From Thermodesulfovibrionales bacterium (lineage in GTDB: Bacteria; Nitrospirota; Thermodesulfovibrionia; Thermodesulfovibrionales; SM23-35), in the NCBI GenBank assembly GCA_049302065.1, contig JBAQLU010000248.1:1-54713 (forward strand): DNA of 54,713 nt, in the 5' to 3' direction. A program made the position numbers. Below are positions 15,701-21,700 of this stretch, piece after piece. Positions within the stretch are counted from its first letter, which is position 1, and every line of letters starts with the position of its first letter.

Positions 15701-18700
15701 CTTTCATAATTGCAAAGATTGAGCGCTCAGGCGCCCTTGACCATATTGATGAAATTATTGAGGCAGCTGACGGGATAATGATCGCAAGGGGTGACCTTGG
15801 GGTTGAGATTCCGATCGAGAGGATTGCCGTGGTTCAGAAAGACCTGATGATACGCGCCAATATGCGGGCAAAGCCGGTTATCACTGCAACACAGATGCTT
15901 GAATCGATGATCACTAACAAGCGTCCTACAAGGGCGGAAGCAACGGACGTCTCAAATGCCATAATCAATGGGACTGACTGTGTAATGCTTTCCGGCGAAT
16001 CAGCGATGGGAAGTTATCCGGTTGAATCAGTGACAATGCTCGTTAAAATTGCGGCTGCAGTAGAACCCGAATGTCATCAGATTTCGGTCAGAGAGATGTT
16101 CCATGGCATTGATATCAAGGATAAAGTTCCTCCTGCGAGACTGATTGACCTGAGCGTTGAGTCGGTTCTCGAATATGCTTCTCCTGCAGCGGTCTTTGTT
16201 CCGACCCGCAGTGGCGCCACTGCAAGAAGCATCGGCCGTTTCAGAGTGCCCGTCTGGGTAATTGCAGTAAGTTCCCAGGAGGCAACATGTCAGAACCTTC
16301 AGTTCTCATACGGAGTCTATCCTGTTCACCAGAAAGAGCATCCGGAGAACTGGAAACCATATATAAAAGAGTGGCTGAAAAGTAATGATATTACAGGTGA
16401 TATAGTAGTTATGACAGAAGGACCTTCCTCAAAACACCCGGACGCAAATTACCGGATGGAGATTATTGACCTGAGCAGATAAGCCGCCATTCCTGACATC
16501 ATCTATGAAATTGCAATTACGGCCATTCAGGCAGATCCGGGAGGTGCATGCGGAGTTACAGTATAACTTGTCTTTTAATTTCCCGGAGGTAGTGATTTCT
16601 CAGGCGGCTTTTTCAATCTCCTTAATCTCTTATCGAACATCTCAAAGTTCTTACCAACAAGAGAGACGTGCCCTATCAGTCGCTCTTGAAAATGTTCCTG
16701 TCTGAGAAGGTGGCAGAAGAATTGCACGGCGCAGCCAAATAAGATGCTGTGCGCTCAAATACTTCCTGTAACATTTATGCTTCTTGTCTGCTAAAATGAT
16801 GAGGAGTACAAATAGCAATTCTTAAGGAGAGTCAATATAGTGGACAAGGAACTGGCACCTATCCCGAATAAGTTGATTTTTTTGTGGCTGCTAATATTTT
16901 TCTTCGTGCTAATTTGGTCTGCGATATATCCGCACGATTTCTTCACATGGTTTCTTGAAGTTCTGCCAGCACTGTTAGGCTTAGTAATTCTCGGAGTAAC
17001 TTTCAGGAACTTTCGCTTCACAAGGATAGCTTATTGGCTTATATTAATGCACTCTATAATTTTAATGATTGGCGGCCATTATACTTATGCAGAAGTGCCC
17101 TTGTTCGATTGGATAAGGGACATGTTCCACATGAGTCGTAATAACTATGATAAAGTGGGACATTTTGCTCAAGGATTTATACCGGCAATTATAACGAGAG
17201 AAATACTCATAAGGAAATCACCAGTGAAAAAGGGAAAGTGGCTATTTTTTATAGTTGTCTGTATATGTCTTGCGCTAAGTGCGCTCTATGAGTTCATCGA
17301 ATGGTGGGTGGCAGTGTTGACGGGAACGGCTGCAGAGTCATTTTTAGGTACTCAGGGATATGTCTGGGATACACAATCCGACATGTTCATAGCACTTGTT
17401 GGGGCAATTGCAGCGCTAAGCTTGCTATCAAAAATTCATGATAGAGAGCTCTCCTTACATCTCTCTTCGCACAACGTTTCTCGTTGAAGTTCTTCCTGTT
17501 ACAACCACCTCATAATAATAGTGAGAATTGCGAATCTTTCTGCCGGAAATAATTAGTGGATAAACCTTCCCTCAATACATTTTCTTATTTCTCTTAATAT
17601 ATCCGCTTTATATTGTAATCCCTGTTATGCTCCTTCCGAGAGATCATCTTGCTGTTTTCATCGAGCATCTTGTCAAGTCTTTCGAGCTCTTTTATGGTGA
17701 GTACGCCGTCCTTCCTCATTTTTTCGTATCTTCTCCTGATTTCGTTCAGGTTATCATGCACAATATCAGCTTCACGCCTATTGAGTTCTCCTGATGCGAG
17801 CCCCTGATTGATCGACCTTTGCTGCCTGTCTATCCGCTCCTGGACATCGGCATCATATAGCTGTTTTGCGGGGTTGTGTTTTTTGTTTCTTATCATCTCA
17901 CTGTTCTTATCCAGCATTTTATCCAGGCTCTCCTGTTCATTCTGAGTCAGTATGCCGTCAGCTGTCATTCGTGCATATTTGTTCCTTATCCAGTTTAAAT
18001 TGTCCTGCAGCATCCCCGTCTCCTTCCGGGTAAGCTCGCCGGATTTTATACCCTGGTTGATGCGACTCTGTTGGTTTTCGATCCTTTCATAAAAAATGTC
18101 TTGCTTATTGTGGGCAGACCTCTCCTGATAAACAGGCCCTTGGCTCGATACAATACACGATGCGACCATAGACAGCAGCCCGAGAAAAATTAAAAGAACA
18201 GATATTTTTTTCATAATTTCCACCTCTTTGAATAATATGTTATTAGAAATTAAGCCGATTTGCAATATCCTACAATAACGGCATCGATATACGTTGTCAC
18301 AACATCTCTTCCGCCTCTTTGAAGTCTACTTAACTATTAGTTACATCTGGGAATAATTAATTCCTCCGACTTGTAAACTTTTCTGCTTGTAGGTAGAGCA
18401 AAGGAAATGGCTATGCGTAGTATGGTGGGAAGGTCACAAAAAGGAATATGGATGCTTTAAGACAACAGTTCTTCCTGAACAGCTCACTTCTCAAAATCTA
18501 CAAAATGGAGCAAGTTATCATTGGTAATCAACGGGGATATGTTGTAGAGATCGCTCTTCAGTTCAACTTAAGCCCATGCTATGTTAGGAAGATAGTGAAT
18601 GATGAGTAGGACCCCAAATAAAAAAAGCCATCTTAAGGGGTTCTACTTCTCGGTACAGCCTATTGTCTTCTTTTCGGCTGTTCCACCCTTATATGGCTCC

Positions 18701-21700
18701 AGAATAACTTGCGATCTCAGTTCCGGGATACTACCTTGAGCTCTTATATCTAAGTGGGTGCTTCGGCAGATGCTTTTAGGTTTCCCCCTCGCTTCCGGAG
18801 GCTTACTCACCAGCATCTGACTCCTGCTTCCCCTACTATCTTTGATCCTCAGGTTCAATCCCGCCCTGAGTATCGCAATTTCTTTTCTTGATTTTAGTAT
18901 TGCTCTTTTCAGGATATATTACAATCGCTGATTCGGGCGAAGGAATAGCGTTTATGATTGTTTAGGGCAGCCTCTCTTCATTTGTGATAATTCTTTATCG
19001 CTTTCAGCAATTATAATGATATTTCATACGCGATCAGGTGATGAAAGTATTTCAGTGAAATTATTGGATTTATTTGTGACTTCCTGTTATCCGCACCTGT
19101 GATATACTTTTTAAAACTACAGAGTACAACTGGTAATAAATGGGCGATACTTCTATCTTTTGAGAAAGGAGGGAAAGAATCATAAAACCGTTTACAACTA
19201 TTGCTATTGTCGTGTTCTTGCTTATCGCTTTTATACATCTTCTCCGGCTGTTCTTTGGTTGGGAAGTCACCATAAGTGGAATGATTTTACCTATATGGAT
19301 AAGTGTGCCTGGTTTTTTAATTGCATCAGGGCTTGCGTTGATGCTGTGGCGAGAATCTCGAAAGTAAGAACAATGCTTCCATAGTGGACAGACCAGCCAT
19401 TTTGTGATAAGAATGTGTATAAGTTGGCTGGAAACAGGTCTGACCAGTTGTAAGGCGAGTTAAGGATGGTGGGTTTTTTGATAATAACCTTTGAGAAAAA
19501 GGAGGAGGAATAAGCTATGAATATAGTCGATCGTATTAAAGGGATTTTGCTTAAGCCTAAGCAGGAGTGGCAAACCATTTCAGGAGAAACCACAACTATT
19601 CCGGAGTTGTATAAGGCCTACATTATTATCTTAGCGGCAATCGGGCCAGTGGCCTCCATTATCGGAATGTCCATTGTCGGCATAAGTTTACCTTTTGTAG
19701 GATCATTTCGGATACCAATAACTACTTCGATTGCTTCTGCGGTTGTTCATTATATTCTGACCCTTGTCGGCGTGTACATATTGGCTCTCATCATTGATGC
19801 GTTGGCTCCCACCTTTTCAGGGGGAAAGAATATTAACCAGGCTTTCAAGGTGGCCACCTATTCCTACACTCCTGGTTGGTTAGCGGGGATTTTTACTATA
19901 ATCCCCGCACTTAGCATCTTGAGCATTCTGGGCCTATATGGTTTGTATCTTCTTTACTTGGGACTTCCCGTTCTTATGAAGTCACCTCAGGAAAAATCGT
20001 TGGGGTACACAGTCGCCGTCATTGTAGCAGCCATTATCATTTTCGTGGTTATTGGTATTGTCTCTCGCGTCTTTATTTCATACCCCACGCCAAACATGCC
20101 CATGCCTGGAATGTAATAAAAGGTTAAGTGGAAAGCATGTTATCGCACCATTATAACTGGGGCAGTATTGTTTCGACCCCGTGCGCTGTCCTTCCTGAAA
20201 CACTCTTTTTTTGAACCTGATATAATTATGATGAGTATAACTGGGAATCAATAATTTGTAGCACTACAAACAGGAGGATCGAAATGAAGGCATCGAAAAG
20301 ATTTATGACTATGGCTGGGTTATTTCTTGTTGTCAGTACGTTTATGTTGTCGTCTGCGGCTATGGCGGCTCAAAAATCAAATAGTCCAGCTCCAGCCGGT
20401 GGAGCAATGCTCCAACCATCTATCAAGTTTACAGAGATATCTATTAATTTTAACAAAACTGACATTGTAATAGCGTATGAGCCTCCTCCAGCGTCAATGA
20501 GGCTTATATGTAAGTTCTCAGATCTAAGTCCCATCCCTCACTCAACCCATAGTGTGGATTTCTACATTAACAATAATAAAGTTATTGACAAAGATAAAGA
20601 TTTTGACCACGCGCAGTTCAAAGGGGAAACGGCTCTTATGGATATACCTATTCCTGTTGAAGGCACTTATACGTTTAAGTGTGTTGTTGATTCCATGAGC
20701 ATATCATTGCCATTTAGGGTCGCCAAATTTCGCTATGAAACGTGTCGCCCTACCGTGACGGTACACATGGTTCCAGACAGCCACACGTTAACACAAGACC
20801 TGGGTCTTTCTATTCCCCCCGTCCAGGATTCTAACAATCCTATATACAGTTTAAATGTGCCAAACGCACCGGATCAAATTCTCAGTTTGACGGGGTCCAC
20901 CATTGTGCCACCAGGAAATGAGGTAAAGTGCATTTATGGCTCAGCTTTATTTTATAAGAAAGAGTGCAAGCAGGCCAAAAAAGTCATTAACCAGCATAAA
21001 TATGAATGCGCACCATAGCAGAAGGTTGAGGACAGTGGCGGATATTTTTCAATTGATGTCAATTCTATTGCAAGACTGTTAATAGTGTTTCGATAATTCT
21101 TTTCATTCTGGTCGGCTGGAGGAGTTAATTCGTGCAGATATTTATGCGGATTTCTCCTCCATATTCTTTTATCTGATAGAATATTTCTTTTTTAGACATG
21201 GAGGTTTAGCAATTAGCCCACCGCTGAGAATTTTCGATTGTACCCTGCGCAATAATGAGAACGCTCGGAACTGCTTGTTTCTTTGAGCAATATAGGCTAA
21301 TTGCTTATTCTTGTGCCTGTTGGCTTGTGCAGCAAAGAAAAAGGCTATGCGTAGTATGGGGCGAAAGAAACACCGCAATCCAGAGAGTCCTGAGAGGCAA
21401 GCATCCTTCCCGAACACCGCACATCCCAGACATGATATAATTCTGCTGAGTACAAAAGGGAATAATGAGAAGTTGACAAAAATCCTATGTTATACCGAAT
21501 CGGTTTTTAGTCCATATTACCACAAAATACCGAATGCCGCATGATAAAACATGTTGATATTATTAAATTCTTAACTTTTTGTAACGTTTCAGATGTGCTA
21601 TAATTTCGCCATAAAACAGAAAAATACGGTATCCGTATAATCATTGTTAGACCACAACCCAAAGGATAACACAATGAATCAGAAAGTAGACGAAATATCA

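Follow-up and report, generated by a model that had tools for sequence, protein, structure and literature searches.

Copy number of a 6S-like RNA family follows that of RpoD-like sigma factor genes in Thermodesulfovibrionales

Results

The window analyzed here is the whole 54,713-nucleotide stretch (positions 1-54,713) of contig JBAQLU010000248.1 (C248) from the Thermodesulfovibrionales bacterium assembly GCA_049302065.1. Its minus strand holds a 6S-like rod at 18702..18884, consisting of a closing stem, a central bubble and a terminal stem and identified from Rfam RF00013, folding and covariation. In an Rfam scan of the window, the entire RF00013 model (1-187) matches 18702-18884 (-) with 35.1 bits (E 2.6e-5), under the gathering score of 46.4. 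The survey's finding had already noted scores below gathering, and this holds for the window copy and most paralogs but not for all homologs, given that L025 (49.1 bits) and G006:960070 (54.9 bits) pass the cut-off. The rod folds with its central bubble in two fold tests (z -3.9 and -5.2) and has the shape expected of 6S RNA, a rod of about 150-240 bases with closing stem, bubble and terminal stem; the available part of PMC7726162 gives a 6S size range of 153-237. Across 41 homologs, 14 of 39 pairs show compensatory change (72 cells, 93% of cells paired), none of 500 shuffles scores as high and slid controls are far lower, which is support rather than proof because kinship among sequences can beat shuffles. 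RNAalifold proposes an alternative fold for the rod centre and, of the 3' domain described below, recovers just the outer stem; the inner helices of both were therefore tested as named structures.

The 5' strand of the central bubble (18834..18847, minus strand) was placed by alignment conservation and the Rfam alignment. Within it, C41-A42 (18844-18843) is nearly invariant among the homologs and, by analogy with known start sites, would be the start region for a product RNA: the product RNA of Bacillus subtilis 6S-1 begins at C40 according to the available text of PMC8876501, and a conserved A adjoins known product-RNA starts (PMC8414754). Known product RNAs also carry a conserved GG templated by two C residues (PMC8414754); in the window's Rfam alignment these two residues are gapped, and a GG is not predicted. 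A 71-codon open reading frame overlapping the RNA was rejected, since homologs differ by gaps of 1-2 bases.

A promoter-like site with a -35 box, a 16-base spacer and a -10 box lies at 18897..18924 (minus strand) and ranks 4th genome-wide by the family matrix, behind the copies on contigs C232, C29 and C113. Its -10 box is degenerate and has drifted from the family consensus, and both consensus scans at the window copy, including that for plain sigma-70 promoters, returned 0 sites. The motif with its 16-base spacer is found at 35 of 50 distinct paralog domains; six others have a one-letter variant, and four are second members of tandems that have no promoter of this kind. At the other end lies a 3' hairpin domain (18615..18704, minus strand; profile match of 40.6 bits), here in a shortened variant closed by a U-run at about 18626-18616. 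Hairpin and U-run are found at 57 of 67 loci and are absent from 10, compensatory changes affect 10 of 27 pairs, and the domain keeps conserved internal sequence; Rfam scans of the window and 8 homolog loci returned no family for it. The domain is likely a terminator and processed trailer. The gene boundaries first proposed, 18686..18889, contain the rod and slice through this conserved domain, which extends to 18615. The survey had described neither the 3' domain nor the copy in the rRNA leader nor the 6S-16S-23S-rpoD operon.

The genome contains eight 6S-type sequences: a canonical copy, six free-standing paralogs (one decayed and two collapsed in the assembly) and one copy in an rRNA leader. 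The proposed 6S-like multigene family is thus real, on the basis of the Rfam match and the profile copies. The canonical copy (C53, 92.3 bits) lies upstream of RNase Y, and the full-length copies on C232, C113 and C29 are 79%, 76% and 74.5% identical to the window copy. Of the four copies originally counted as full-length, C29 lacks the 3' domain and its closing stem is disrupted (z -1.9); at 94% identity to C232, it is by its sequence a recent, decayed duplicate of that copy, in which the 3' domain itself is reduced to its first 38 positions. Cut pieces of the family occur on C31, C99 and C243, and 127-base identical overlaps join C243/C31 and C31/C99. What had been read as one cut copy on C31/C99 is therefore two near-identical copies that were merged by the assembler, one on either side of an rpoD paralog on C31. 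Divergent 6S-rpoD pairs are seen repeatedly, in this genome (G000; C232 and C31), in G053 and in G005, and some of these loci also have Hsp20 and a ribosome-hibernation gene.

The leader copy (C233:26195-26375, 31.9 bits) belongs to one of two rRNA operons, in the order 6S-like, 16S, 23S and a second rpoD (RpoD2), without tRNA and without 5S. This operon was recovered in 12 of 12 assembled cases, nine of them with the rod, and the RpoD2 gene is conserved 80-150 bases past the 23S. All 37 leader-type matches examined lie directly before 16S, leader copies with 47.1, 48.7 and 54.0 bits exceed the Rfam cut-off of 46.4, and covariation is seen in 17 of 47 pairs. Bacterial rRNA operon leaders have a boxA-like element and a processing stem; here, likewise, there is a promoter followed by a boxA-like motif, and another motif resembling it lies 40-80 bases before 16S. 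Unlike in an ordinary leader, a 6S-type rod lies between the motifs, tRNA and 5S are missing and an rpoD paralog follows the operon. Outside the order, a 151-genome phylum sample searched with strict filters, with six borderline cases checked, contained no leader rod, and we found no paper on a 6S-type copy in an rRNA leader. The rod is deleted in 12 genomes in which the leader is otherwise intact, and rRNA maturation therefore does not depend on it. Within the family, free-standing copies are present in 9/9 rod-deleted genomes versus 18/29 rod-intact genomes (Fisher p 0.04), and by genus in 5/5 versus 10/18 (p 0.12); in family f11, two of three genomes with an empty leader have no paralog match. 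These counts are no more than suggestive of a rule that genomes lose the leader copy only when they have free-standing ones.

Across the family, 55 of 57 genomes match our own model at E<=1e-3. The earlier figure of 54 of 57 overstated the spread of the paralog type, which, defined by at least 59 bits to this model, is present in 38 of 57 genomes (76 domains); among 20 weak matches sampled, 13 were rRNA-leader copies, one was canonical and six were of another free-standing type. The number of extra 6S domains ranges from 0 to 8 per genome across the 57, and the closed relative G006 has 10 6S-type sequences, eight of them paralog domains whose rods all fold with z -3.0 to -5.3. In the RNA tree, subtypes are common to several genera (a 14-row clade at 100/100, the window's 15-row clade at 99/88), so several kinds are maintained in parallel; in a short subtype the 3' bubble strand is reduced. 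At four loci (G003, two in G004, and G006), rods separated by a few bases stand head to tail under one promoter and share a common 3' domain. A paralog query matched 0 of 84 genomes of families f3, f4, f6, f7, f9 and f10, which have at most three RpoD-like genes; in f11, 9 of 20 genomes carry the paralog, with no more than two RpoD-like genes. A genome-wide pattern scan returned 32 loci, 30 of them in Nitrospirota records; the other two (L049 and L053) matched neither profile and were set aside as chance.

Relatives of the RNA were found in 24 sequencing runs of 16 studies, 21 of them recorded as RNA; these data are assembled contigs of relatives with no DNA control, and concern a G004 locus rather than the window. 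Small-share runs without mapped contigs were set aside as evidence of habitat. Contigs of run X8 reach a depth of 507 on rods, with just 0.11 continuing into unlike sequence, and a tandem junction is bridged by contigs from two studies. The rods in X8 are covered to a depth of about 1000 and the 3' domain to about 9; this hints weakly at removal of the trailer, although the low coverage may only reflect faster divergence of the domain.

The paralog count follows the count of RpoD-like genes with a Spearman correlation of 0.77 (n=57), and 0.54 after correction for genome size, in related and mostly incomplete MAGs that were not tree-corrected. For genus means the values are 0.77 and 0.69 (n=25), and without the four top genomes the correlation is 0.72. 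The one control family, sigma-54 activators, gives a partial correlation of -0.07. In a second family the values are 0.51 and 0.38 (n=54), rising to 0.67 and 0.57 in the 38 genomes that are at least 90% complete. The claim that the 6S family expanded along with the sigma70 paralogs is therefore better supported than its authors had put it, who reported a drop to 0.24 after genome size. There are exceptions in both directions: G001, G009, G039 and G044 have a paralog with one or two sigma hits, and G016 and G047 have four sigma hits and no paralog.

Leaving this genome out, a sigma gene lies within about 4 kb at 7 of 67 loci, compared with about 1.5 expected, or roughly five times chance, and part of the count trend is therefore due to shared duplication. 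A matrix from 33 paralog promoters was used to look for a shared regulon promoter before the rpoD paralogs; only 13 sites exceed 13 bits, 6S copies take the first four places, and none lies before a sigma gene. On the protein side, of 37 sigma proteins taken from four genomes, 31 cluster with RpoD2; both RpoD paralogs scanned have all group-1 domains, and 33 of 36 sigma factors keep a basic residue at the position in region 4.2 that corresponds to K593.

Discussion

The RNAs described here resemble 6S/SsrS (RF00013) in length, in the rod with its central bubble, in conserved terminal-stem motifs and in matching the whole model. They differ in scoring mostly below the cut-off, in numbering up to 10 per genome, in carrying a conserved 3' hairpin domain, in lying away from the canonical RNase Y site (held by the ordinary 6S) and in having no evident GG motif. 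The survey's figure of one or two copies for known bacteria is wrong, since genomes with more than two 6S genes and tandem pairs are already published: Magnetococcus sp. MC-1 has four 6S genes (Wehner et al. 2014, as cited in PMC7726162), and the Bacillus cereus group has tandem ssrSA-ssrSB genes co-transcribed from one upstream promoter (PMC7726162). The four tandem loci here likewise have two rods under one promoter, presumably processed, but belong to a dispersed family with a shared 3' domain, whereas the B. cereus group, in the part of that paper available, has two genes in all. What sets the present family apart from the same sources is the higher number (8, and 10 in G006, against four in Magnetococcus), an order-wide second lineage and the measured link to RpoD counts.

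We lean towards the view that a second, lineage-specific 6S class has multiplied together with a second RpoD-type lineage, and that the RNAs as a group restrain the enlarged pool of RpoD-type polymerase. A transcript of about 290 bases would be trimmed to a rod of about 180 bases, which may mimic an open promoter, bind holoenzyme via sigma region 4.2 and be released by product-RNA synthesis as in Escherichia coli and B. subtilis. Excision from pre-rRNA would yield the leader copy and tie its supply to ribosome synthesis, and extra copies may be kept because extra sigma genes increase the holoenzyme that needs buffering. A more far-reaching scheme is conceivable, though we hold it only tentatively: a second transcription system would originate from the special rRNA operon, one transcript giving 6S, 16S, 23S and the rpoD2 message, such that ribosome synthesis supplies both the sigma factor and the RNA that inhibits it. 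RpoD2-derived genes and free-standing 6S copies would then have co-expanded in dosage balance, with the RNAs preferring RpoD2-type over housekeeping holoenzyme.

A division of labour in time is an unlikely alternative, in which all copies act on the same holoenzymes and differ in expression, the canonical RNA in stationary phase, the leader copy during growth and the free-standing copies under stress, the sigma link being indirect. The model for such timing is B. subtilis, where the available parts of PMC11077062 and PMC8876501 describe two paralogous 6S RNAs in one cell, and where 6S-1 and 6S-2 differ in expression while both bind sigma-A holoenzyme (PMC11077062); those sources, to the extent available, have two copies, one primary sigma factor and no rRNA-operon location, unlike the situation here. 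Three distinct promoter contexts in these genomes and stress-type neighbours at some loci (Hsp20, a DinB-like polymerase, S24 peptidase, SRAP) fit this alternative. However, the paralog promoters are very alike across RNA subtypes, which does not suggest different inputs, and timing does not account for a copy number that goes with RpoD-like genes and not with sigma-54 activators.

The survey had proposed that each RNA tunes its own holoenzyme, that is, that each 6S paralog is specialized on one RpoD paralog. The count correlation, the stability of subtypes across genera, the recurring divergent 6S-rpoD pair with its occasional Hsp20 and hibernation genes and the reduced bubble strand of the short subtype speak for such pairing. 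We nevertheless consider it improbable, and the claim is not supported: few loci have a sigma neighbour, the copies beside sigma genes fall in different subtypes across the RNA tree, G006 has eight RNA domains for 14-15 RpoD-like genes and region 4.2 is nearly invariant.

Slightly less probable still is that one useful second 6S gene was duplicated with its sigma neighbours in duplication-prone segments, leaving neutral, decaying extras. The decayed C29 copy, the near-identical pair flanking rpoD on C31, the excess of sigma adjacency and the weak promoter of the window copy are consistent with this, but the fetched flanks of 60 of 67 loci hold no sigma gene, subtypes persist over many genera with compensatory changes, and all eight paralog rods in G006 fold.

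It is very doubtful that the two-domain RNA of about 290 bases binds core RNA polymerase in the manner of Ms1, or that the rods derive from 6S but have lost polymerase binding, with the leader rod acting in rRNA processing. The transcript is near the length of Ms1 (about 300 bases; PMC11077062, in the part available), the 3' domain with its conserved internal sequence has no Rfam family and the product-RNA motif differs. Ms1 and CoRP of Actinobacteria are also longer polymerase-binding RNAs of 6S-like shape, CoRP being cut in two, but are described in the available text as mainly core-enzyme binders and belong to a different phylum (PMC11077062, PMC9130861). Neither gave an Rfam match in the window or nine loci, no sequence similarity to them was seen, 6S is the best and only convincing Rfam match, the X8 depth profile hints weakly at trailer removal and the leader rod is dispensable in the 12 genomes that lost it. 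Finally, it is hardly credible that the element is a mobile repeat of the non-autonomous kind, or a passenger of phages or plasmids, that merely resembles 6S. Copies are dispersed, their loci vary and some lie close to tRNA or tmRNA genes, and transposases or integrases make up 4 of the 124 nearest neighbour genes, but these are of different families with no fixed partner, viral contigs gave 0 matches to one exact pattern, plasmids and phages gave no match, copies within the genome are just 74-79% identical and promoter and U-run belong to the unit.

Most of these 6S-type genes fall under the Rfam cut-off and escape annotation. The reason why some bacteria have multiple 6S RNAs has been studied on two-copy systems; with 0-8 extra domains over 57 related genomes, a dosage buffer, one RNA per sigma factor and timing could be told apart with purified holoenzymes. 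If the reading of the special operon is true, a 6S rod in the rRNA leader together with a terminal rpoD gene would be a new coupling of polymerase availability to ribosome synthesis.

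Results

The 6S-type gene of the window, which is contig C248 of genome G000, has a rod at 18884-18702 (-) that matches the whole Rfam 6S model with 35.1 bits (E 2.6e-5) and folds with a central bubble (z -3.9 and -5.2 in two folding runs). Because the score lies under the gathering score of 46.4, a gathering-level scan of the window returns only tmRNA (an ordinary gene at 48496-48845 (-), 214.9 bits), and we class the RNA as a variant of 6S rather than plain 6S. The low score reported in the survey's finding holds for the window copy, but not for homologs L025 (49.1 bits) and G006:960070 (54.9 bits), which pass the cut-off. 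Compensatory changes in 14 of 39 pairs (41 sequences) support the named rod structure, although here, as for the 3' domain below, relatedness of the sequences can inflate the controls. When GTDB species genomes were searched with an exact closing-stem pattern, 32 loci emerged, of which 30 are in Nitrospirota records mostly named Thermodesulfovibrionales; the remaining two fit neither of the profiles used. The window also encodes, at 17594-18265 (-), a lipoprotein-like ORF of 223 residues that contains two internal repeats and for which Pfam gave no convincing match.

The gene extends further than originally placed, taking in an upstream promoter motif and a 3' hairpin domain with terminal U-run (18704-18615 (-); 90-115 bases across the family). 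The motif, with a 16-base spacer, is conserved upstream of rods: 35 of 50 distinct domains carry the strict pattern, 6 a one-letter variant and 5 deviate, including the window copy, at which a plain consensus scan found neither promoter nor terminator; the other 4 are promoterless second members of tandem pairs. The 3' domain occurs at 57 of 67 loci (G000 excluded), is also visible in families f2 and f12, has compensatory changes in 10 of 27 pairs (named structure, 37 sequences) and finds no match in Rfam. It never occurs without a rod in G000, where a 31-base remnant of the rod/3' domain junction (94% identity to the window copy) lies at C186:13584-13614.

Eight 6S-type sequences were found in G000. 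The canonical gene (C53, 92.3 bits) lies upstream of RNase Y; C232, C113 and C29 hold full-length copies (74-79% identity), and another lies in an rRNA leader (C233). Both domains are present in C248 and C113, and C232 has a cut 3' domain. The rpoD paralog of C31 is probably flanked by two near-identical copies collapsed in assembly, as judged from 127-base contig overlaps. Four full-length free-standing copies and a cut one had been proposed; of these, C29 duplicates C232 at 94% identity and has a broken closing stem (z -1.9), and the cut copy is probably the collapsed pair. Directly upstream of the C113 copy's promoter, repeats at C113:64-130 resemble an insertion-sequence end, which we take to be IS21-like. 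The proposed multigene family itself is borne out, with ten members in the closed relative G006: one canonical, one leader copy and eight paralog domains; the eight paralogs all fold (z -3.0 to -5.3), and two of them are without a 3' domain.

A sequence-only model matches 55 of 57 family genomes, but the paralog type (59 bits or more; 76 domains) is present in only 38, which corrects the earlier figure of 54. Among 20 sampled weak hits, 13 were leader copies, 1 was canonical and 6 belonged to another type. Across the order, a paralog query (E<=1e-6) matched 129 of 317 genomes, some of them through weak matches to 6S of another type; families f3, f4, f6, f7, f9 and f10 gave none (two candidates scored per genome). 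In family f12, 66 domains are spread over 46 of the 54 genomes. In an RNA tree the canonical, leader-type and free-standing classes separate, and subtypes are common to several genera, which is evidence against mere recent copying. Genera g8 and g26 (L077-L081, L085) hold a further free-standing type that clusters with leader copies (L077, 51.4 bits, above the cut-off). Free-standing leader-like rods with their own promoter-like site in family f16, outside the order (L170-L172, 35.6-38.6 bits), suggest that the second 6S lineage predates the order. Judged from sequence, these RNAs are a real, conserved multigene family, 6S-like by the tests of fold and covariation and predicted to bind polymerase.

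The leader copy (L004, C233:26195-26375) stops some 50 bases short of 16S. Without exception, the 30 best leader-type hits and the 7 hits from other families sit immediately ahead of 16S and follow a promoter-like site and a boxA-like motif. Three leader copies score above the Rfam cut-off, and covariation is seen in 17 of 47 pairs (15 sequences). Between motif and rod lies a covarying hairpin with a U-rich run (L004 ~1480-1505 and homologs, alignment A4 columns 62-85), which resembles a terminator; transcription past it would require antitermination. Of the two rRNA loci in each of the closed genomes G006 and G086, just one has the rod. This special operon runs rod, 16S, short tRNA-free spacer, 23S, no 5S, GC hairpin and, about 80-150 bases on, an rpoD paralog; the other is standard, with tRNA-Ile, tRNA-Ala and 5S, and in G006 the two are 100% identical in 16S and 23S. 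The layout recurs in 12 of 12 assembled cases (L187, L189, L256-L264, L266), 9 with the rod; three more regions gave no information, and the operon at L188 is of the standard kind. In G000 the special operon probably comprises the C233 end with the rod and C105:1-1609, joined by comparison with G050. Twelve leaders have lost the rod (L138-L144, L146 and L147 in nine family genomes; L148-L150), with differing breakpoints and in some only the closing stem left. In a phylum sample, 7 of 151 genomes had a rod-plus-16S match, all in this order.

Part of the window stretch occurs in 24 sequencing runs (21 of them recorded as RNA) from 16 studies; the share covered is 0.31 at most, so the runs stem from relatives. 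Four were aligned, at 80% likeness, to the tandem locus L007 of G004 instead of the window. Run X8 gave 63 contigs, whose depth reaches 507 on the rods and is about 9 over the 3' domain; the far flanks are not covered, and 0.11 of the contigs extend into unlike sequence. X1, at 0.89, looks DNA-like. In X4 and X8 there are contigs that span the junction between the tandem rods, and loose ends of X1 and X4 contigs agree with the 3' variant peculiar to the window copy. As assembled contigs without a DNA control, these data support, but do not prove, abundant RNA from relatives' rods.

Family genomes hold 1-14 RpoD-like genes (region 2 match at E<=1e-20). The claim that copy number follows sigma number was upheld: among related, mostly incomplete genomes, Spearman correlation is 0.77 (n=57) and 0.54 after genome size, against 0.46 and -0.07 for the one control family, sigma-54 activators. 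Averaged over 25 genera, the pair of values is 0.77 and 0.69; leaving out the four top genomes gives 0.72. In f12 the pair is 0.51 and 0.38 (n=54), or 0.67 and 0.57 for the 38 genomes with a completeness of at least 90%. There are exceptions, notably f11 (paralog in 9 of 20 genomes, no more than 2 sigma hits). A tree of sigma proteins, 37 in all and drawn from four genomes, places 31 with RpoD2, the rRNA-linked factor, and 6 with RpoD1, the housekeeping factor linked to dnaG. At sigma loci L269-L298 (G006, G005) the RpoD-like genes reach 15 in a single closed genome, and several are truncated or contain internal stops. A stress-type cluster (G000:C232:367-4515, L192, L200; families assigned from homologs) combines Hsp20, a 6S paralog, a divergently oriented rpoD paralog and a gene fusion of hibernation-factor and cold-shock type; G045 has the same neighbours with the rpoD missing between.

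Discussion

More than two 6S genes per genome and tandem pairs are already known. Magnetococcus MC-1 has four copies according to PMC7726162, which cites Wehner 2014 for this, contrary to the premise that known bacteria have one or two. The paper also describes 6S genes of the B. cereus group that lie in tandem, as the pair at L007 does, and are transcribed together; we also drew on parts of PMC8414754 and PMC2848244. Eight to ten copies, co-variation with RpoD number and a 6S-16S-23S-rpoD operon were not found in print in the open-licence literature, which yielded no paper on 6S in rRNA operons or leaders and, among the matches listed, none on 6S RNA in Nitrospirota or on RpoD-paralog expansion.

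That copies differ in when they are made is an unlikely alternative explanation. The survey's proposal that each RNA tunes its own holoenzyme now looks improbable. A sigma gene lies within ~4 kb at 7 of 67 loci, against about 1.5 expected (flanks are shorter at contig ends), and these copies scatter over different RNA subtypes. Single residues of sigma region 4.2 have a role in 6S binding. Of 36 readable sigma factors, 33 retain a basic residue at the position equivalent to K593. The numbering follows PMC4943231, seen in excerpt, whose references include Klocko and Wassarman 2009, titled for a positive surface of region 4.2 that binds 6S. With few sigma-adjacent loci, mixed subtypes and this residue kept, one-to-one pairing is unsupported. 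Hitchhiking, in which 6S copies duplicated along with neighbouring sigma genes, is likewise improbable, an Ms1-like or non-binding RNA very improbable, and a mobile element scarcely credible.

Beside the observed gene anatomy, covariation, operon layout, sigma ancestry and count correlation, we consider 6S-like holoenzyme binding with dosage balance, as a whole mechanism, slightly more probable than not. By analogy with E. coli and B. subtilis 6S (excerpts of PMC9130861, PMC11077062 and PMC8876501), the rod would mimic an open promoter, bind RNA polymerase holoenzyme and be released by a product RNA. The 3' domain would be trimmed off the transcript and the leader copy excised from pre-rRNA, and the dosage of 6S paralogs may be balanced against RpoD2-type holoenzymes.
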